Positions 20,941 to 29,450 of a DNA stretch of 32,000 bases are shown here, piece by piece. Position numbers and translations under genes: made by a program. The stretch is from the NCBI RefSeq assembly GCF_000012345.1, contig NC_007205.1:1140001-1172000 (forward strand), in the 5' to 3' direction. The first letter of the stretch is position 1. The number at the start of each line of letters is the position of its first letter. This DNA is from Candidatus Pelagibacter ubique HTCC1062. Lineage in GTDB: Bacteria > Pseudomonadota > Alphaproteobacteria > Pelagibacterales > Pelagibacteraceae. The notes beneath the pieces were generated by a model. The model did not search any database. It saw only the letters and a list, made by a program, of their open reading frames with translations, and was not told the DNA's origin.

Positions 20941-22149
20941 ATGAAGCTAAGTTTTGATGAAATATTACTACTTGTAAAAGATAAACAATTTAAAGAATCT
21001 TTAAAATATATAAACAAACTGATATCTGAAAATGGTGATAATTTTAATTATCTACACTTAAAAGGTACACTAGAATTCAATGTAGGTGAATTTTCAAATG
21101 CTATAACAAGCTTTTCATCTGCATTAGAACTAAAAAAAAATGATCATAATATTCATCATTTAAGAGGTATTACTTATTATAACTTAAACAAATTTAGCGA
21201 AGCTAAAAAAGATTTAGAAAAAGCAATTTCATTAGAAAATAATTTTTCTGAAGCTTATTTTTCTCTTGGAGTTTTGTATTTTGAGCATTCTAAAAACACT
21301 GAAGCAATAGAGAGCTTTATAAAATCAATTGAAATAAATAAAAATTTTAAAAAACCAATAAAACATTTAATTAAGGCACTAGCACGTACTAATAATATTA
21401 AAGAAACAAATTCAAGTATTGTATCTAAACATAATGAATTGAATAAAATTAATCTTTATTATAACTCAACTGAATATTTAGATGATAAAATTATAAGTAA
21501 TTTTGTAAAAGAAACAGATGAAATTATTGGAAAAAATTTTCAAGATTTAGATTTTAAAGAAACACAAATTTATAGAAGGAATCAAGATTTTCTAAATTGC
21601 AGAAGACATAAAAAAGTATTTAATACTTATGATGTCATACCCAAATTTTGTTTCAATTGCTATAAGGTTCAAATCGAACCAGATAACTTAGTAGATTTAA
21701 TTAAACTCTATATAATATTTGACAACATTATCTTACCAAAAAACAATATAAGAAAATGTATGATCGAAAATAGAGCAAATATTTCAGGAAATTATAAAGG
21801 ATTAATATATTGTAGTTCCATCGAAGAATCTCAATTAATAGAAAAAAAACTTAACGTAATATTAAAAAATAATTTAAATAAATCAATAGTTTGTAAAATT
21901 AAAAGAGGATGCTCTGAATTTGCATTAAAATATCCTAAATATAATAGTTTTGAAAAAGACTCATTAAATTATAAAGAAGATTGGAAAAATTATGAAGCGC
22001 TAATCGATAACAAGTACTCACACTTAACTTTTGATAAAAAAACAATACCAACAATCAAAGGTATTTCTTTAAACGATGTATTAATAATAAGAAATTGGAT
22101 AACTTTTGCTAAAATGAGAGGTGACGATATTCATAAATTAATCACATAA
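20941..22149 (+). CDS. TPR-repeat protein with an uncharacterised Cys-motif C-terminal domain
   Basis: The N-terminal ~150 aa contain TPR units (AITSFSSALELKKNDHNIHHLRGITYYNLNKFSEAKKDLEKAISLENNFSEAYFSLGVLYFEHSKNTEAIESFIKSIEINKN). The C-terminal ~200 aa contain NCRRHKK...FCFNCYKV and KRGCSEF. I cannot assign a family to that part. Confidence 0.7.
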   Translation: MKLSFDEILLLVKDKQFKESLKYINKLISENGDNFNYLHLKGTLEFNVGEFSNAITSFSSALELKKNDHNIHHLRGITYYNLNKFSEAKKDLEKAISLENNFSEAYFSLGVLYFEHSKNTEAIESFIKSIEINKNFKKPIKHLIKALARTNNIKETNSSIVSKHNELNKINLYYNSTEYLDDKIISNFVKETDEIIGKNFQDLDFKETQIYRRNQDFLNCRRHKKVFNTYDVIPKFCFNCYKVQIEPDNLVDLIKLYIIFDNIILPKNNIRKCMIENRANISGNYKGLIYCSSIEESQLIEKKLNVILKNNLNKSIVCKIKRGCSEFALKYPKYNSFEKDSLNYKEDWKNYEALIDNKYSHLTFDKKTIPTIKGISLNDVLIIRNWITFAKMRGDDIHKLIT

Positions 22150-22228
22150 TAAATATATTGAACTCAATAAATAAAATTAATTACATTAATAAAGAGACAA
22201 AACTACACTAAAGGTTAAAGGTATCTTG

Positions 22229-23077
22229 CTATAAGTACCCAAGTTCTTTCATTTCTACATAAAACTTAAGCTCAATTTCATCTTTGATTTTTTTATTTAA
22301 ATTATTTTCCCAATTATTTTTCGGCCCAAGATTAAAAAATTTTTTCTTTGTATCATTTGTGTCGTAAGCATTTTCATCAAAACCACCTTTTTCCTCTAGG
22401 TTTTGGAGATAATTAAAACTAGTGGTTTTAATAATGTTTTTATTTTTAATTTCATCTGTTTGGATAGGAGTAAATCTTTTAATAAATGCAATAATTTTAT
22501 CTAATTCAGAATTTGTATTATTAATTAAATCTTCATATTTTATTAATAGAAAATTTTCATTATTATTTTTCCAAAAATTATAATGTTCATTCCAAGTACC
22601 TAAAAGAGTTATTAAGCTACCATTATCTAAATCATCCTCTTTTTCAAATTTCGTAATAATTTTTGGAGCAAATAAAAAATTTTTTGAATCTTCTACAGAT
22701 TTACTAAAGTGATTTGAAATTGAATTTACTAAATTTCTAGGATCTCGAGTAATGTATATTGTTGCAAGTGTATTTTTTTTACTAGTAAAGCTGTACTGAC
22801 CAATTTTACAGTTAATATGATGTGTTTTAAAAAATTTTACTTTATTATCTAAATTTATAAAATCTTGCGCAGATTCCCAATATTTTTTAATTTCATGAAT
22901 ATTTTCAAAATCATTTGTAAAATCTTTAAAATACTTTTTACTTGGAAATTGTTTAATTTGATTTAGTAATTCAAATTTAAATACACCATCATTAGTATGC
23001 ATTAAAGCGGCTATTATAGATCTTACCCATGTATTGCCACTTTTAGGGTAAGATGCTAGCCATATAATCATACTCAC
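22229..23077 (-). CDS. PAPS-dependent sulfotransferase family protein
   Basis: 282 aa. 5'-PSB loop WLASYPKSGNTWVRS and 3'-PB motif IYITRDPRNLVNSISNH are the two canonical sulfotransferase PAPS-binding motifs. Confidence 0.88.
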   Translation of the reverse strand: MSMIIWLASYPKSGNTWVRSIIAALMHTNDGVFKFELLNQIKQFPSKKYFKDFTNDFENIHEIKKYWESAQDFINLDNKVKFFKTHHINCKIGQYSFTSKKNTLATIYITRDPRNLVNSISNHFSKSVEDSKNFLFAPKIITKFEKEDDLDNGSLITLLGTWNEHYNFWKNNNENFLLIKYEDLINNTNSELDKIIAFIKRFTPIQTDEIKNKNIIKTTSFNYLQNLEEKGGFDENAYDTNDTKKKFFNLGPKNNWENNLNKKIKDEIELKFYVEMKELGYL

Positions 23078-23149
23078 TTATAATATTTAGATTAAAAAAA
23101 TCAATGTTGCTAAATAATTAAAAATTACAGGTTAAGATCATTTTATTAA

Positions 23150-23194
23150 AAAAATTATAATATTGAAAACTTAATAAATTTTCCAGGGCATTAA
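23150..23194 (+). pseudogene. apt: Relic of the apt 3' end (last ~14 codons plus stop)
   Basis: In-frame reading gives KNYNIENLINFPGH*, against KKGYKVENLMDFPGH* at the end of the live apt gene. It is preceded by an in-frame stop, and its stop codon lies 1 nt from the tRNA fragment. Confidence 0.8.
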
Positions 23195-23195
23195 A

Positions 23196-23248
23196 TGGTA
23201 GCGGGAAGTGGAATCGAACCACTGACCTCAGGCTTATGAGTCCTGCGC
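23196..23248 (-). pseudogene. 3' fragment (53 nt) of tRNA-Met(CAU); direct repeat of 26596..26648 (att-like island boundary)
   Basis: Perfect 53/53 identity with the 3' part of the intact tRNA (anticodon arm through CCA). The sequences diverge completely after 23248/26648. Confidence 0.9.
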
Positions 23249-23311
23249 CATGACCCTTGGAGCCAACGCATCCTGCAAGAACATCTTCAAAACTCCTTTG
23301 TCTCTGCTCTT

Positions 23312-23387
23312 TTCTTTCTAGACTCAGATTTACATAAACTTAGACTCTAGTCAACTTCTATTGGAGCATTGGAGCATGAGTGGAGCA
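23312..23387 (+). repeat. Repeat module R1 (diverged, expanded copy) with three TGGAGCA units
   Basis: The 21-nt core CATTGGAGCATGAGTGGAGCA (23367..23387) is identical to the R2 and R3 cores. R1 has an extra ATTGGAGC unit and a diverged or expanded 5' part that starts with TTCTTTCTAGA (R2/R3 start with TTCTTCTAGA). Confidence 0.8.
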
Positions 23388-23620
23388 CAGATTTTATATC
23401 AATAGAGGTACCAAGTGGATTTCGAAAATTGAAAGTTGTTATGACCCCACCACCCTTTTTTATAAATGGGACTCCTTATATCTATACGTAAATAAGAATG
23501 TAAAAATATTATTGCTATTCTTGTAAGAGAAAGTGGTTTTTAAATATCATTAGTTTATTAAACCTAAAATGGACGTCTTTTGATATAAAAAGATACATCA
23601 AGTCAATTATAATTTTAAAA

Positions 23621-24238
23621 ATGAAAGTTATAAATAATAAAAAAGGTTTTACCTTAATTGAATTATTAGTGGTAGTTGCCATCATTGGTATTTTATCATC
23701 TGTCGGGGTTGTTGCTTATAATGGGTATACAGCTGGGGCTAAAGAATCAGCTTGCAAAGGTAATTTTAGAACCTTAGTTAAATCTGTTTATGAAAATATA
23801 ATGTGGTGTGAGCTTAACCCAACAATTAATTTTATAGGGGGTAATGATAAACAAGTTTGGGAATATGATTGTAATACTATGTTCGTTGGCGGCATGTCAG
23901 TTTCGTCTCAGCTTGGGTACACGACAAATGAAAAAATAGCCCACCTTACTATAACTGAAATTAGTAATCGAGATAGACATAGAGAACCAGACTCAACAAT
24001 AGGTTCAAGAACAACACTTAACACGATTTCTAATCCCTACACTGGTCGTTATGTTTATGATGACACACCCAGTGAATATTATTATGGAGATAAATATGAT
24101 ATGAGAGGTAAATTATCTCTTAGAAAAAGAGATAGTAGTGGAAATGAATTAAGCAATAATTGGCAGTCAGAGGGACAACTGTATCTAATAACTAGATGTG
24201 GTGATAAGGTGATAGAACACGAATTTGATATCTATTGA
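23621..24238 (+). CDS. Type IV pilin-like protein (prepilin N-terminal cleavage/methylation domain), paralogue 1
   Basis: MKVINNKKG/FTLIELLVVVAIIGILSSVGVVAY has a short basic leader, the G/F cleavage site, Glu5 and a hydrophobic helix. The C-terminal domain is unique and has 4 Cys. Confidence 0.85.
   Translation: MKVINNKKGFTLIELLVVVAIIGILSSVGVVAYNGYTAGAKESACKGNFRTLVKSVYENIMWCELNPTINFIGGNDKQVWEYDCNTMFVGGMSVSSQLGYTTNEKIAHLTITEISNRDRHREPDSTIGSRTTLNTISNPYTGRYVYDDTPSEYYYGDKYDMRGKLSLRKRDSSGNELSNNWQSEGQLYLITRCGDKVIEHEFDIY
23645..23692 (+). repeat. 48-nt block identical between the two pilin genes (copy 1)
   Basis: GGTTTTACCTTAATTGAATTATTAGTGGTAGTTGCCATCATTGGTATT is 48/48 identical to 25714..25761. 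Nucleotide identity drops abruptly after the block even though the proteins stay homologous for about 20 more residues. Confidence 0.9.
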
Positions 24239-24251
24239 AAATTTATATGTT

Positions 24252-24302
24252 TTCTTCTAGATAACGCTATGACCAATTCTCATTGGAGCATGAGTGGAGC
24301 AA
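24252..24302 (+). repeat. Repeat module R2 (51 nt) 13 nt downstream of pilin 1
   Basis: TTCTTCTAGATAACGCTATGACCAATTCTCATTGGAGCATGAGTGGAGCAA is 50/51 identical to R3 (26503..26553). It contains TCTAGA, the inverted repeat CCAAT/ATTGG, and two TGGAGCA units spaced 11 nt start to start. Confidence 0.9.
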
Positions 24303-24384
24303 AAAAAGTTAGTTCCAATCACTAACAGCTTTAACTTATCAAAATTATTAAAAGCTTTCAAATAAAACCCAAAATAAACATAGT

Positions 24385-24786
24385 ATGACTTTGATTACAT
24401 TAAATATAAGTATATATTTTAAAATTATGACTCAAACACTATTTGAAAAATATGGCGGAAAAAAAACAGTTGGTCAAATTGTTATTAATTTTTATCAAAA
24501 GCTTATGGCTGATGAAAATTTAAAAAAATTTTTTACAAATTCTGATATGAAAGTTTTGATTTCACACCAAACTAATTTCATTTCCCAAGCTTTAGGTGGG
24601 CCAAAAGAATATACTGGTCTTGATATGAAAACTGCTCATCAAGGCATGAAAATATCTCAAGAAGACTTTAATGGAGTTGCTGGACATCTAAAACAAACCT
24701 TGGAAGAACTAAATGTTGAAAGCCAAGATGTTGACACCATCATTGGTGTTGTCGCTCCACTTTCAGAACATATTGTATCAAAATAA
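24385..24786 (+). CDS. Truncated (2-on-2) haemoglobin, group I (trHbN-like)
   Basis: LFEKYGGKKTVGQIVINFYQKLMADENLKKFF...HQTNFISQALGGPKEYTGLDMKTAHQGMKISQEDFNGVAGHL shows both Gly-Gly hinges, the B9-B10 Phe-Tyr and a proximal His context. The likely real start is MTQTLFEKYGG at 24427. Confidence 0.85.
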   Translation: MTLITLNISIYFKIMTQTLFEKYGGKKTVGQIVINFYQKLMADENLKKFFTNSDMKVLISHQTNFISQALGGPKEYTGLDMKTAHQGMKISQEDFNGVAGHLKQTLEELNVESQDVDTIIGVVAPLSEHIVSK

Positions 24787-24825
24787 CAGAATTCATAATT
24801 AATAAATTTTGGCAATATTTATTTA

Positions 24826-25692
24826 ATGATAAAAATAAATAATTGGGAAGACTTAATAGCATTAGCAAAAGAACAAGGGCTCACACCTAAGGAAGCATGG
24901 GAAAGAATTGAAAAAACAAATCTAAAATTTTTAAATAGAAAAAGTTCAGCAGAAAAAGAACTTAAAAAAGGAACAAGAGTACAAAAACTAATGTTTCCAA
25001 AGAATAATGAGGAAAATATTCTTTTAGCAAAAAATGTACCTTCTTTGGATGTTTCTGGTGATTTTTATAATTTTAAAAATATAGGAGATAAAATCTTTTT
25101 TACTCTTGGCGATGTTTCTGGCAAAGGAGTGGATGCAGGACTCATTATGGCAAGAGTTACCGCATTGTTTGAAATCCTTGTTGAGGAAAAAAAGAGTCTT
25201 ATTGAAATTGTGTCATTAATAAATGATAATTTATATAATTTACGTTCAGGAAAATTTTTAACAGGAATATTTGCTGTATACGATAAAAAATCTAAAAATC
25301 TTGAATTTATTAATGCTGGCCATTCAGAAAGTATAATTTCAGAGAATAAAAAAATTACTGAACATGTTTCTAGCAAAATTCCGCCGCTTGGAGTTCAGCC
25401 TATTAATCTTGATTTAAATAGTGTTTTAAATAAAATTTCATTGAAGGATAAAATTTTTTATATATACAGCGATGGCTTAAGCGAAAGTAAAGATTTTGAA
25501 GGAAATGAAATTGAAGCTGAGGGTATAATAGATTTGTTAAATAAGAATAAAGATCACGATATTGCAACACAATTGGAAAATATTTTTATAGAAATTTCCG
25601 CGTTTGGTGCATTGCAAAATATGTCAAATGAAGAACAAAGTATAATTAAGGATGATCTTACAATTTTAGCTATTAATGGGAAAAATATTTAA
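24826..25692 (+). CDS. PP2C-family SpoIIE/RsbU-like serine phosphatase with a short N-terminal region and no recognisable sensor domain
   Basis: VQKLMFP...LDVSGDFYNF...FFTLGDVSGKGVDAGLIMARV...FLTGIFAVYD...LEFINAGHSE...PPLGV...IYSDGLSES...KDDLTILAI is the full SpoIIE-domain motif series. Confidence 0.85.
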   Translation: MIKINNWEDLIALAKEQGLTPKEAWERIEKTNLKFLNRKSSAEKELKKGTRVQKLMFPKNNEENILLAKNVPSLDVSGDFYNFKNIGDKIFFTLGDVSGKGVDAGLIMARVTALFEILVEEKKSLIEIVSLINDNLYNLRSGKFLTGIFAVYDKKSKNLEFINAGHSESIISENKKITEHVSSKIPPLGVQPINLDLNSVLNKISLKDKIFYIYSDGLSESKDFEGNEIEAEGIIDLLNKNKDHDIATQLENIFIEISAFGALQNMSNEEQSIIKDDLTILAINGKNI

Positions 25693-25695
25693 TCA

Positions 25696-26454
25696 ATGAA
25701 AAAAATTAAAAATGGTTTTACCTTAATTGAATTATTAGTGGTAGTTGCCATCATTGGTATTCTTGCAAGTGTAGGTATTGTTAGTTTTCAAGGTTACACT
25801 AAAATGGCAAAGAACAGGGTGCTTGTTGCAAATTGGAAAACAATTTCAAAAGTAATTGAGTTAGAATTAGCTGCTGCAAACAATGGTCTTGATAGTTTTA
25901 TTGCAGAATATGATGAAGATGGAAATATGGTTAGTGAAAAAATGGATGGAAATACAACTTGTAATAATTTTGCATTTTCAGTCCAACAACATTTTAGTCA
26001 TTTTAAAAACCCATACAATCTAGAATGGGAGTCTGTAACAGTTGATACATTAGCGCAATCACAACATAGGAAAGGACAAATTCAATTAGTGTGCTATTCA
26101 CATTTTGCAAGTTTCGGTGACGGTGGAGGATGTCCTATTTCATCTGATGCATGTAGATTGTTGTTGATTGCTTATAAAGAAGATAGAGGACGATGGAATA
26201 CACCTGATGGAAAGTGTGATAATACAATTGTTTCAACCACTGGTGATGGCTGGCAACGTAATAAGAGAGAATTTGTAAATGATTGTTATAATCAAATACT
26301 TGTAGGTGGAGACCAAAGAGAAAGTCAAGCTCAAGCACAATCTGATTGTGGTTGGGATTCAAGTATCCATGGCTCTTGGGCAGTAAATCAAAATAGTATC
26401 AGAGATGAAGCAGGTGGAAAATGTTCAGGTTCAAGTGGAACACCTTGTTCTTAA
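25696..26454 (+). CDS. Type IV pilin-like protein, paralogue 2 (Cys-rich C-terminal domain)
   Basis: MKKIKNG/FTLIELLVVVAIIGILASVGIVSFQGY has a prepilin leader and methylation motif. The unique 200-aa C-terminal domain has 9 Cys. The gene starts 3 nt after the phosphatase stop. Confidence 0.85.
   Translation: MKKIKNGFTLIELLVVVAIIGILASVGIVSFQGYTKMAKNRVLVANWKTISKVIELELAAANNGLDSFIAEYDEDGNMVSEKMDGNTTCNNFAFSVQQHFSHFKNPYNLEWESVTVDTLAQSQHRKGQIQLVCYSHFASFGDGGGCPISSDACRLLLIAYKEDRGRWNTPDGKCDNTIVSTTGDGWQRNKREFVNDCYNQILVGGDQRESQAQAQSDCGWDSSIHGSWAVNQNSIRDEAGGKCSGSSGTPCS
25714..25761 (+). repeat. 48-nt block identical between the two pilin genes (copy 2)
   Basis: 48/48 identity with 23645..23692. Confidence 0.9.
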
Positions 26455-26502
26455 ATTTTTAATTAATCTGTTATCTAACACGTGCTTCTCACTTGTTATT
26501 TC

Positions 26503-26553
26503 TTCTTCTAGATAACGCAATGACCAATTCTCATTGGAGCATGAGTGGAGCAA
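26503..26553 (+). repeat. Repeat module R3 (51 nt) downstream of pilin 2 and 42 nt from the tRNA 3' end
   Basis: 50/51 identical to R2, with TGGAGCA at 26535..26541 and 26546..26552. Confidence 0.9.
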
Positions 26554-26595
26554 TTAATATTTGAAAATGTTCAACCTTAAATAAGGCTTGTTAAT

Positions 26596-26672
26596 TGGTA
26601 GCGGGAAGTGGAATCGAACCACTGACCTCAGGCTTATGAGTCCTGCGCTCTAACCGACTGAGCTACCCCGCC
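26596..26672 (-). tRNA. tRNA with CAU anticodon (elongator Met by default; Ile2/lysidine identity cannot be excluded), CCA encoded
   Basis: Minus-strand sequence GGCGGGG-TA-GCTC-AGTCGGTTA-GAGC-G-CAGGA-CTCATAA-GCCTG-AGGTC-AGTGG-TTCGATT-CCACT-TCCCGCT-A-CCA folds into a 77-nt cloverleaf. The acceptor stem has two G-U pairs, and there is an A31/G39 mismatch at the loop-proximal end of the anticodon stem. It lacks initiator features (no C1-A72 mismatch, no three G-C pairs in the anticodon stem). Confidence 0.9.
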
Positions 26673-26736
26673 ACTTAATTCTTGATGATTTATAATAGGT
26701 TTTTAATTTAGATCAATCAACTTTTGATCAATATGA

Positions 26737-26964
26737 TTATTTTATAACCACTATAAAAGTTGAAAAAAGAGTTAATGCTAAAATTACTGAACTATAAAAA
26801 ACGATTTGTCTTTTAGTTTCGTTTTTCTTATCTATTTTTACTCGGTTCAATAATTTATTGATGTCTACAATTCTCTTTTGATCAATATACTGTACTGGAA
26901 TAGTTTTTTTATGAACTTTTTTTTCACTGGTATGTTTTCTGTCATGAAAATAAGTTTTTTGCAT
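26737..26964 (-). CDS. Small hypothetical protein with a basic N-terminus and a C-terminal TM anchor (75 aa)
   Basis: ORF fills the gap between the dehydrogenase gene and the tRNA. There is a clear hydrophobic C-terminal helix (IVFYSSVILALTLFSTFIVVI). No homology recognised and no obvious SD. Confidence 0.4.
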   Translation of the reverse strand: MQKTYFHDRKHTSEKKVHKKTIPVQYIDQKRIVDINKLLNRVKIDKKNETKRQIVFYSSVILALTLFSTFIVVIK

Positions 26965-27005
26965 GAGATTATTTAACCATCAATTATTAAACTCGGCAAC
27001 TAAAA

Positions 27006-29450
27006 TTATAACAATCTAGCACGTTTATCTTTTAGGGGAGCGATCTCTACTAGTGCTGGTAATTTCTGTTTAGCAACTTCAATATATAGGTTCATTTTTG
27101 AAAGTTCTTCATTTGAATGTATTGAGCTTACATATCCAAAAGACAAGTTTTTTTTATAATTAAAGGAATAATTGCCGGATGTTGTTCTCCCAATAATCTT
27201 ATCTTCTAGATAAATTGGCTCTTCATGTAGTAATAGAGGTGTGCCTGGCTTACTATCTTTAAGTGACAGTATAATAAATCTTCTATTTAGCTTTTGATCT
27301 TTTATTTTTAATAAGCTTTCTTTACCAATAAAATTGGTTTCTTTTTTATAGCTTATTGCAAAATTTAATCCTGCCTCGTATTGGTTTTCTTCAGGTGAAA
27401 TATCATGACCCCAATGTAAAAAACCACTTTCCATTCTCATAGTATCCATTGCATGAGAACCACAATGAGATAAATTATGATTTTTTCCCTCTTCAATAAT
27501 TAATTGATAAATTTCTTTAGCATCTTTATTTTCAATATAAAGTTCAAATCCTAACTCACCCACATAAGATAATCTTTGGGCCCAAATTTTTTTTGAACCA
27601 AGCGTTACAAATTTGCCATAACCAAATTTAAATGTTTCATTGCTAAAATCATCATTTGAAATTTTTGAAATTAAATTTCTACTTTTTGGTCCAAAAATTC
27701 CCAAACAAACAAGATCATCCGTAATATCTTTAAATTCTAAATTAGGTGATAAATGTTTTAAAATATGTGCTTTGTCGTGAGTTCTTGTTGCAGCTGAGCT
27801 TATTATTCTAAAATGATTTTTATCAATACAAATAACTGTTAAGTCTGTTTCAATTCCTCCACCCTCATTTAACATTTGGGTGTAAGTTGATCTTCCTATT
27901 TCATTTTTAATATTTGCTGTACATATTCTTTGTAATTCACTGTGTGCATTTTCTCCTTTTATTTCATATTTAGAAAAAGGAGAGAGTTCAAAAAGACCAA
28001 CATTGGTGATTGTATTTTTTGTTTCAAATTCAACTGAAGGGTACCAATTTTGATAATCAAAACTATATTTGTATTCTGCTTTTTCATTACTTTTTGCATA
28101 CCACATCGGTCTTTCGTATTCACCTGATACACCAAAGCATGCTCCCTCTTTTTTTAACTCTTCATGATAAGGTAAAAGTCTTTGATTTCTTGATGTGTTA
28201 TGTTGTTTATAGGGCCAGTGCATTCCATATAAATCACCAAGAGTTTCCGTTACCCTTTCCATAATAAATTTTTTAGATGAATGAAATTTTTGAAATCTTT
28301 TAATATCGAGTGAAAATAAATCTTCATTCATATATCCATTAATCATCCATTCAGCAGTAACTCTGCCCGCACCCCCAGAACTTGCGATCCCAATGCTATT
28401 AAATCCACAACACGTAAAAAGGTTATTCACTTCAGGAGTTTCTCCTAAAAGATATTGCGTGTCAGGGGTAAAAGATTCAGGCCCTGAAAAAAATTTTCTA
28501 ATTCCAGCAGTTTCTAACATGGGTAATCTTTGAAATGATTTTTCAAGATAAGGCTCAAAGTGATCAAAATCATCTGGAAACTCTCCAAAAGAAAAGTCCA
28601 GTGGCACCACTCCTTTGTCTTTAAATGCAGGTTTTGCATTAGGTTCAAATATTCCAACTAACATTTTCCCAGCATCTTCTTTTAAATAAAGACAGGAATT
28701 ATAGTCTCTCAAAACTGGTAAGTTTTTAGGTAATTTATCTAATGGTTCTGTGATTATGTAAAAGTGCTCATTTGGATATAATGGAATACTTACACCAATA
28801 TCTTCTCCAATTTGCCTCGACCACATCCCAGTTGCAATTACAACGTATTCACAATCAATTTTGCCAAATTTAGTTTGAACACCAACAATTTTTTTGTCTT
28901 TAACCAATATTTTTTCAACAGGAGTTTTCTCAAATATCTGAGCCCCTTCCATCTTTGCAGCTTTAGCTAATACATTAGTAACCCCTATAGGATCTGCCTG
29001 ACCATCTTCTGGCATATAAACTCCACCTAAAATGTCATCATCATTTATAACGGGATAGAGTTCTTTTATTCTTTGTTTATTAACGCTTTCAACATTAACA
29101 TCAAACAACTGCGCAGCTGTTGCTTGTCTTAATAATTCTTGTAATCTTTCGGGTGTACTTGCAACTGTGATTGCACCATTTTGTTTTAATCCAGTTGATA
29201 ATCCAGTTTTTTTTTCTAATTCTTTATAAAGATTTAAGGAATATTTTCTAAGCCGTGTAATAGTGGCTGATGCTCCTAATTGACCAACAAGTCCTGCTGC
29301 ATGCCAAGTAGTTCCTGAAGTAAGTTGATCTCTTTCTAATAATATAGTGTCTTTCCAACCGTATTTTGCAAGGTGATAAGCAACAGAACAGCCAGCAACA
29401 CCCCCTCCAATAACTACTACTTTAGCTGATTTTGGTAATACGGCTGACAT
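27006..29450 (-). CDS. Dimethylglycine/sarcosine dehydrogenase family (FAD oxidoreductase + GcvT-like folate-binding aminomethyltransferase domains)
   Basis: 814 aa. N-terminal FAD motif VVVIGGGVAGCSVAYHLAK and the HAAGLVGQL region. The C-terminal half has GcvT-type blocks (LSYVGELGFELY, MRMESGFLHWGHD). Confidence 0.9.
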   Translation of the reverse strand: MSAVLPKSAKVVVIGGGVAGCSVAYHLAKYGWKDTILLERDQLTSGTTWHAAGLVGQLGASATITRLRKYSLNLYKELEKKTGLSTGLKQNGAITVASTPERLQELLRQATAAQLFDVNVESVNKQRIKELYPVINDDDILGGVYMPEDGQADPIGVTNVLAKAAKMEGAQIFEKTPVEKILVKDKKIVGVQTKFGKIDCEYVVIATGMWSRQIGEDIGVSIPLYPNEHFYIITEPLDKLPKNLPVLRDYNSCLYLKEDAGKMLVGIFEPNAKPAFKDKGVVPLDFSFGEFPDDFDHFEPYLEKSFQRLPMLETAGIRKFFSGPESFTPDTQYLLGETPEVNNLFTCCGFNSIGIASSGGAGRVTAEWMINGYMNEDLFSLDIKRFQKFHSSKKFIMERVTETLGDLYGMHWPYKQHNTSRNQRLLPYHEELKKEGACFGVSGEYERPMWYAKSNEKAEYKYSFDYQNWYPSVEFETKNTITNVGLFELSPFSKYEIKGENAHSELQRICTANIKNEIGRSTYTQMLNEGGGIETDLTVICIDKNHFRIISSAATRTHDKAHILKHLSPNLEFKDITDDLVCLGIFGPKSRNLISKISNDDFSNETFKFGYGKFVTLGSKKIWAQRLSYVGELGFELYIENKDAKEIYQLIIEEGKNHNLSHCGSHAMDTMRMESGFLHWGHDISPEENQYEAGLNFAISYKKETNFIGKESLLKIKDQKLNRRFIILSLKDSKPGTPLLLHEEPIYLEDKIIGRTTSGNYSFNYKKNLSFGYVSSIHSNEELSKMNLYIEVAKQKLPALVEIAPLKDKRARLL

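Follow-up and report, generated by a model that had tools for sequence, protein, structure and literature searches.

What does a free-standing truncated haemoglobin do beside a serine phosphatase that has no sensor domain of its own, in SAR11, the most abundant heterotroph of the ocean and one with almost no regulators? In this article, I take up that question for a stretch of 32,000 nucleotides (nt) of 'Candidatus Pelagibacter ubique' HTCC1062 (contig NC_007205.1, positions 1,140,001 to 1,172,000 of the forward strand), which I will call the window and within which positions are counted from its first letter. Here, a globin gene (SAR11_1217) is followed by a gene for an RsbU/SpoIIE-type PP2C phosphatase (SAR11_1218), with a type IV pilin gene on either side. 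The original prediction, made from the sequence alone, read globin, phosphatase and the pilin behind them as one signalling unit. I will argue instead that the globin-phosphatase pair is the unit, that it can move between genomes without the pilin, and that it may act as an accessory gas- or redox-sensing input to a partner-switching circuit that lies among the pilus genes of SAR11.

The globin-phosphatase pair

Relatives of the pair were gathered from metagenome and genome contigs (phosphatases 66-98% identical over their full length, globins 86-100% identical), and in 36 of the 36 loci with enough flanking DNA the globin gene lies directly upstream of the phosphatase gene, across a gap of 22-40 nt and with no counter-example; five apparent exceptions are cut by contig ends and are not counted among the 36. 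This adjacency is far beyond chance, and the survey of gene neighbourhoods leaves no doubt that it is not unique to HTCC1062. Also, the pair is found in at least six genomic contexts: in a tRNA-Met islet beside a dehydrogenase gene, together with one or two pilins (the window, L001-L004 and L106); in a tRNA-Thr islet, either alone (L005 and L026-L028) or with a pilin behind it (L007); flanked by an M50/HlyD gene and by pyrG, which encodes CTP synthase (L016-L025); after a family 2 glycosyltransferase (GT2) gene (L108-L113); and in two arrangements behind the kinase gene rsbW, with pilC following in one (L107) and a pilin in the other (L008). Synonymous divergence (dS) is nearly equal for globin and phosphatase (1.08 and 1.04 between the window and L016; 0.55 and 0.51 between the window and L026) and both genes are under purifying selection, with ratios of nonsynonymous to synonymous divergence (dN/dS) of 0.05-0.19 and 0.07-0.20, respectively, and thus the two have been inherited and moved together. 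In three SAR11 genomes (L026, L027 and L028), the pair alone, about 1.45 kb, is flanked by tRNA-Thr(UGU), as a 50-52-nt copy on one side and as the intact gene on the other, and because this minimal islet consists of exactly the globin and the phosphatase, it seems that selection keeps these two genes, in support of the self-contained function suggested at the outset. The conserved and mobile element that the original prediction described is therefore this pair, and it is very probably a functional unit.

The pilin, however, drops out of that unit, and the original prediction is supported in part only. A pilin gene lies 3' of the phosphatase only in the tRNA-Met lineage (3 nt behind it in the window, L001-L004 and L106), in L008 (about 36 nt) and in L007 (about 150 nt), and it is absent where the pair stands next to tRNA-Thr, pyrG, the GT2 gene or pilC. 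In L001 and L002, a homologue of the first pilin of the window, which here precedes the pair, sits downstream of the phosphatase instead, and this shuffling of pilin order between relatives indicates that the pilins are separate cassettes. Nor is the 3-nt spacing between phosphatase and pilin proof of equal expression.

The globin gene occupies 24427..24786 on the + strand. Its listed open reading frame (ORF) begins at 24385, but since all homologues begin with MTQTL or MSQTL, translation almost certainly starts from the ATG at 24427, for a product of 119 amino acids (aa). The protein matches Pfam Bac_globin with E=5.5e-24 (85.1 bits against a cut-off of 21), its best solved relative is HbN of Mycobacterium tuberculosis (1idr, E=8e-24, gapless alignment), and its top matches in PDB are all of group I (HbN, GlbN and the Chlamydomonas and Tetrahymena proteins), with groups II and III far lower. 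Residue by residue, both Gly-Gly motifs, PheB9-TyrB10, LeuE7, GlnE11 and the proximal HisF8 of HbN are kept, and the motifs KYGG, NFYQ, HQTNF, ALGGP and AHQG match HbN column for column and recur in the intact homologues. Judged by these matches, SAR11_1217 is a group I truncated haemoglobin (trHbN) with an intact haem pocket, predicted to bind haem and presumed to be a haem-based sensing subunit for oxygen (O2), nitric oxide (NO) or redox state. A globin-coupled sensor was considered and rejected because the protein is of the wrong fold class and carries no fusion, being a single-domain 2-on-2 globin of 119 aa; conversely, PF01152 occurs in none of the 120 phosphatase relatives among the matches listed.

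The next-nearest globin (57% identical) was seen on a contig with a G+C content of about 42% (L013, 3386-4908), where a HisKA/HATPase_c histidine kinase gene follows 56 nt downstream, and is a second case of this globin clade beside a signalling enzyme. As a clean parallel it is weakened, since the N-terminus of that kinase is PAS-like by eye and the kinase is hence not sensor-less.

The phosphatase gene (24826..25692, + strand, 288 aa) begins 39 nt past the globin stop and in the same reading frame, the two starts lying 399 nt apart. Its product matches Pfam SpoIIE at aa 88-283 with E=3.6e-29 (102.5 bits against a cut-off of 25) and no other domain, and what precedes the catalytic region is a minimal helical N-terminus (aa 1-56) with no sensor domain. 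The metal-binding and catalytic motifs SGDFYN, DVSGKG, NAGH, YSDGLSE and KDDLT are intact: D96, D216 and D277 are invariant in a narrower alignment, while across 54-55 sequences G99-K100-G101, N163-G165-H166 and D216-G217-E220 are invariant and D79, D276 and D277 nearly so. AlphaFold2 models the protein with a mean confidence score (pLDDT) of 78.8; the core exceeds 90, and the three helices in front of it (residues 7-16, 21-37 and 42-56) are of low confidence. On this model, the nearest solved folds are those of partner-switch phosphatases, as the closest Foldseek matches are RssB (3f79), SiaA (6k4e, TM scores 0.69/0.80), Rv1364c, SpoIIE and RsbX. Among the closer relatives, conservation of the N-terminus equals or exceeds that of the catalytic domain (nonsynonymous differences, pN, of 0.00-0.05 versus 0.005-0.09). 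Furthermore, in all other SAR11 PP2C paralogues seen, the same helical linker is preceded by a fused sensor (Amt, GAF or CHASE2), and a sensor-less member of this family fits with a sensor that is supplied in trans.

Three candidates for natural fusions (P0015 with 444 aa, P0012 and P0019) were rejected as chimeric metagenome assemblies broken inside the phosphatase gene; in one of them, the break falls at the shared SGDFYNF motif, where the sequence is joined to the GAF-PP2C paralogue. A defence-system reading was likewise set aside, as PADLOC returned no matches for any of the four islet proteins.

The RsbW switch and the pilus genes

To what circuit could such a phosphatase belong? In three independent assemblies (L006, L008 and L010), the globin start codon lies 9 nt past the stop of a gene for an RsbW/SpoIIAB-type serine kinase (HATPase_c_2, E=3e-19). 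This rsbW-globin junction is identical in all three, and a scan of metagenome contigs for it brought up a fourth assembly, L107 (78-5796), in which kinase, globin and phosphatase are followed by convergent pilC, pilB and pilQ. The four contigs end inside the kinase, and the STAS genes upstream of it are seen only in two core loci (L039, 15123-20678; L046, 16383-20114). There, the same RsbW-like kinase (57-92% identical), which is a core SAR11 gene, comes after two STAS genes with pilQ-pilB-pilC on one side and, in L046, the core pilin on the other side of the STAS-STAS-kinase block. The STAS protein passes the TIGR00377 anti-sigma-antagonist model (71.8 bits versus 53.45), and kinase and STAS protein are present on hundreds to more than 1,000 contigs, where they are named RsbW and anti-anti-sigma factor. 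A few kb upstream lie pilD and the three PP2C paralogues mentioned above, 31-37% identical to the window phosphatase, of which one is fused to an ammonium transporter, one to a GAF domain and one to a CHASE2 domain; L029 (8687-16792) is a further locus of this pilus cluster. No sigma-factor gene is adjacent to the STAS-rsbW block, its flanks being the pilin and pilC/B/Q.

In HTCC1062 itself, the two STAS genes and rsbW are SAR11_0055-0057 and again lie in the pilus cluster. The statement in the original prediction that no STAS or anti-sigma partners are nearby thus holds within the 32-kb window, which has no STAS or kinase gene, but not for the genome. In the phosphoproteome of HTCC1062 published in 2025, RsbW (SAR11_0057) is the only annotated Ser/Thr kinase (PMC13198564), and both STAS proteins are phosphorylated in vivo on the serine of a DSSG motif, at S54 in AAZ20881 and at S54/S55 in AAZ20880, with the published phosphopeptides ...YMDSSGISVLIESHQK (S54) and ...YMDSSGISIIIESNQR (S54/S55) (PMC13198564 supplement). 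The accessions of that study were placed through peptides matching the window sulfotransferase and, at related loci, PilB and the STAS proteins, and AAZ22022-22027 correspond to SAR11_1216-1221 by accession order only, anchored on the sulfotransferase peptide. The same supplement lists phosphosites on RsbW, on PilB (AAZ20884, T543) and on the core pilin (AAZ20879, T97/T99), so phosphorylation may reach pilus components directly. According to the same paper, the HTCC1062 genome has no annotated protein phosphatase (PMC13198564); from their domains, SAR11_1218 and its sensor-fused paralogues appear to be the obvious candidates, apparently overlooked.

How, then, might the pair work? In the proposed scheme, it would be an accessory gas- or redox-sensing input module for the pilus-linked partner-switching circuit of SAR11, in whose core RsbW would phosphorylate the STAS proteins on the DSSG serine. 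The haem of the globin would report O2, NO or redox state; the globin would then bind the short helical N-terminus and linker of the phosphatase and switch it on or off, much as RsbT acts on RsbU or RsbQ on RsbP, occupying the role that the covalently attached sensor has in the paralogues; the phosphatase would dephosphorylate the phosphorylated STAS protein (STAS~P); and the altered partnering of STAS and RsbW would change an output that is probably pilus-linked, be it piliation or DNA uptake. The steps of this scheme differ in strength. Given the rsbW junction in relatives and the phospho-STAS proteins in HTCC1062, the substrate of SAR11_1218 is probably STAS~P and not the pilin-related target that had been proposed for it. 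I would put an accessory input phosphatase for the STAS/RsbW switch, as a composite model, at evenly balanced chances, and control of the phosphatase by the globin just short of that. The pilus as output, suggested by the place of the switch within the pilus cluster and by the lack of an adjacent sigma-factor gene, I hold less firmly still, although it is of interest that HTCC1062 cells starved of energy in the dark have abundant pili and a 2.2-fold increase in pilA (PMC3090418), which offers a setting where respiratory or oxygen status and piliation connect. The signal is most likely O2, NO or the redox state of the haem. Taken as a whole, that a free-standing group I globin serves as the gas or redox sensor subunit of a horizontally transferred input module, plugged into the sole Ser/Thr kinase switch of SAR11, can be offered only as a tentative proposal.

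Several observations weigh against the input-module scheme. In most contexts, including the window, the pair is far from the STAS and rsbW genes, and the three other SAR11 PP2C phosphatases could serve STAS~P, while about 1,000 published Ser/Thr/Tyr sites (PMC13198564) make other substrates possible. The N-terminal helices to which the globin would bind are modelled at low confidence only, and the globin retains every feature of the enzymatic NO-dioxygenase type of trHbN, which allows a purely catalytic role. In addition, by the inferred accession mapping, the globin, the phosphatase and the first pilin are missing from the HTCC1062 quantification table for six conditions, in which the second pilin is present, so that the pair may be poorly expressed in air-saturated batch culture. 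Finally, the cassette was seen in just 3 of 185,579 species representatives and is thus rare, and according to Wilhelm et al. the globin had no good counterpart in the Sargasso Sea data (PMC2217521).

The rival accounts have to explain the same evidence. The first holds that a detoxification enzyme and an unrelated regulator happen to share a cassette, the globin being a NO dioxygenase or O2 handler and the phosphatase acting independently of it. The closest solved relative of the globin is indeed the NO dioxygenase HbN, with the TyrB10/GlnE11/HisF8 pocket complete; a 50%-identical globin is solitary among metabolic genes; and unrelated cargo does accumulate in the tRNA-anchored islets, among it pilins, a restriction-modification system and an HNH-like gene. 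However, mere hitch-hiking leaves unexplained the adjacency in 36 of 36 loci and at least six contexts, the constant gap of 22-40 nt, the matching dS values and the two-gene minimal islet; no solo copy of either gene was found among the collected loci, and a PP2C phosphatase without sensor, partner or dedicated substrate would have no regulated function, and I consider this account unlikely. Less likely again is the original reading, that a globin-controlled phosphatase acts directly on a pilin or a protein of the pilus machine, with globin, phosphatase and pilin forming a functional operon. Wherever a pilin follows the phosphatase, at 3, about 36 or about 150 nt depending on the locus, the arrangement suits this idea, as do the published phosphosites on the core pilin (T97/T99) and PilB (T543), yet in most of its contexts the pair has no pilin beside it and the pilin cassettes change order between close relatives, mature pilins are membrane or extracellular proteins and hence poor substrates for a cytoplasmic phosphatase, and HTCC1062 contains phospho-STAS proteins, the kind of substrate on which RsbU/SpoIIE-type phosphatases characteristically act (PMC11418112).

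The wiring could also run in reverse, with the globin as the regulated output, phosphorylated by RsbW and dephosphorylated by the phosphatase, or sequestered as a sigma factor would be. The gene order in L107 invites the thought, since the globin directly follows rsbW there, as sigB does in rsbV-rsbW-sigB-rsbX operons, with the phosphatase behind. Against it, the core STAS-rsbW module exists in many SAR11 genomes that have no globin, so the partner of RsbW must be a core protein, and the portion of the published phosphoproteome tables that was available contains no globin phosphopeptide. I know of no precedent for a globin as the target of a partner switch and regard this arrangement as very improbable, which leaves the globin as an input to the STAS/RsbW switch as the reading I prefer.

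Should the input-module proposal prove true, strains that bear the cassette would place the production of pili or the uptake of DNA under the influence of O2 or NO, and a truncated haemoglobin would act as a signalling partner rather than as a NO-detoxifying enzyme, a new role for the family. To my knowledge, no truncated haemoglobin has an established sensor role, so that a 2-on-2 globin would have one here for the first time, and a sensory input would be seen to be exchanged as a cassette: 1.45 kb of DNA adding one input to a core circuit would amount to modular signal acquisition in a streamlined genome. Independently of that outcome, the window phosphatase and its three sensor-fused paralogues, tied by position to the kinase and the pilus genes, make the phosphatase question raised by the phosphoproteome (PMC13198564) directly testable.

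The tRNA islet and its surroundings

The islet of the window is bracketed by a tRNA-Met repeat. On its left is an exact 53-nt copy of the 3' part of the tRNA gene (23196..23248, - strand; a partial tRNA of 27.4 bits in Rfam), which forms an attL-like direct repeat, and on its right is the intact tRNA-Met(CAU) gene (26596..26672, - strand), the integration site. Between them lie four ORFs, confirmed at their stated coordinates and all on the + strand: pilin 1 (SAR11_1216, 23621..24238), a separate cassette 5' of the pair with an N_methyl match of E=2.2e-9 and a TIGR02532 match; the group I globin; the sensor-less phosphatase; and pilin 2 (SAR11_1219, 25696..26454), which starts 3 nt past the phosphatase stop and also matches N_methyl and TIGR02532. 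By these matches, both pilins have a class III signal peptide with the G/FTLIE motif.

Each of the two pilin genes has a 57-nt repeat behind it. Copy 1 (24246..24302, + strand) is 3' of pilin 1 and contains the 21-nt core CATTGGAGCATGAGTGGAGCA, and copy 2 (26497..26553, + strand), which is 95% identical, lies between pilin 2 and tRNA-Met. The core CATTGGAGCATGAGTGGAGCA occurs additionally at 23367-23387, for three matches in the window versus 0 expected; it is found just before tRNA-Met in L001 and L002, as in the window, and 3' of pilin 2 in L106. The repeat may be a cassette-boundary or recombination sequence. Structured RNAs or terminators were rejected as explanations, given fold z-scores of +0.4 to -1.6, no Rfam family above threshold and no terminator-like sites in the repeats.

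The pair moves between genomes as cargo of such small, integrase-less islets anchored at tRNA genes. There is no recombinase or integrase among the four ORFs of the window islet, and the tRNA-Thr islets of 1.45 kb hold the pair only; L005 and L007 share the left end of those of L026-L028. Other cargo is stacked at the tRNA-Thr hotspot as well: in L027 (5590-9016), methylases of the Dam and N6/N4 types and an AlwI-type endonuclease, and in L005 an ORF that by eye resembles the HNH type (1-307), which a partial tRNA copy separates from the pair. Carriage by phages was considered and rejected: none of the viral contigs encodes a relative of the pair, and among deposited phages, none of which carries the pair, the sole match was to the tRNA-Met gene itself.

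This locus was not new to the literature. Across 20941-29450, in a window with a G+C content of about 30%, the gene order runs TPR, sulfotransferase, pilin, globin, phosphatase, pilin, a 75-aa ORF and an 814-aa sarcosine/dimethylglycine dehydrogenase, and it matches exactly the entries SAR11_1214 to SAR11_1221 that Wilhelm et al. (2007, Table 9; PMC2217521) listed under hypervariable region 4 (HVR4) of HTCC1062, where SAR11_1216-1219 are given as pilin, globin, phosphatase and pilin. The annotations 'bacterial-like globin' and 'phosphatase, sigB regulator' date from 2005-2007, Vinogradov et al. (2006) named HTCC1062 as the smallest genome with a globin and typed that globin 2/2Hb1, and Meyer et al. 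(2009) listed a 146-nt intergenic region between SAR11_1216 and SAR11_1218 (genome 1164239-1164384), which is 24239-24384 of the window. The belief that no such module had been described is therefore half right: the gene order has been known since 2007, whereas the literature search found no paper that gives the globin-phosphatase pair a function or ties a truncated haemoglobin to a PP2C phosphatase, and it is the functional reading of the pair that is new.

Some neighbours deserve a brief mention. The TPR and sulfotransferase genes (20941-23077) have a G+C content of only about 22%, lie outside the tRNA-Met repeat and are absent from L106, a relative whose globin is 97% identical to that of the window and in which the tRNA repeat, present as a decayed copy, directly adjoins the phosphoribosyltransferase gene. 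The 75-aa ORF beside tRNA-Met (26737-26964, - strand) is, by accession order, probably SAR11_1220 (AAZ22026), and it was quantified in the published proteome, where its level rose about 4.8-fold under one condition and fell under the remaining five of six.

Comparison with known systems

Each part of the proposed arrangement has a counterpart elsewhere. The M. tuberculosis HbN, the closest solved relative of the SAR11 globin, has the same haem-pocket residues but works as a NO dioxygenase and possesses both a pre-A extension and a PheE15 gate, whereas in the SAR11 globin the pre-A segment is missing and residue E15 is Ile, and a PP2C phosphatase always accompanies this globin. Haem globins that report O2 upstream of an RsbU-type pathway are represented by the stressosome sensor RsbR of Vibrio (PMC4976288, PMC9237108); however, RsbR and the globin-coupled sensors are 3-on-3 globins fused to STAS or other outputs, and the SAR11 protein is a free-standing 2-on-2 globin of group I. 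For actinobacteria, there is also a prediction that a non-haem 'photoglobin' is paired with SpoIIE outputs (PMC8717448). As for mobility, the islets resemble the tycheposon-like islands of marine picoplankton, in which repeats of the 3' part of a tRNA gene bracket small stacked cargo in a hypervariable region, but those of SAR11 have no integrase or replication gene in or beside them, and the pair is on no phage or viral contig.

For the circuit, the HmpU/HmpV/HmpW system of Nostoc punctiforme (PMC6495340) likewise combines an Rsb-like phosphatase, STAS protein and kinase without an obvious sigma output, uses the STAS protein as its output and governs type IV pilus-dependent motility; it differs in being cyanobacterial, in having no globin and in not being mobile, and its link to the pilus is genetic while that in SAR11 is positional only. 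In RsbT-RsbU (PMC12143880), the phosphatase has a helical N-terminus and linker with no ligand-binding domain and takes its partner in trans, as is predicted for SAR11, and RsbT turns RsbU on by making its flexible linker form an ordered coiled-coil dimer, which has been proposed as the general mechanism of sensor-linked PP2C phosphatases; unlike the globin, RsbT is a kinase-fold protein released from the stressosome, and the N-domain of RsbU is a larger, four-helix bundle. The RsbQ-RsbP energy-stress system of Bacillus subtilis (PMC3183031) also has a small separate protein and an adjacent PP2C phosphatase that feed a STAS~P/RsbW switch, although RsbQ is an alpha/beta hydrolase acting through the PAS domain of RsbP, whereas in SAR11 the small partner is a truncated globin, the phosphatase has some 56 helical residues in place of a PAS domain, and the two together are mobile cargo.

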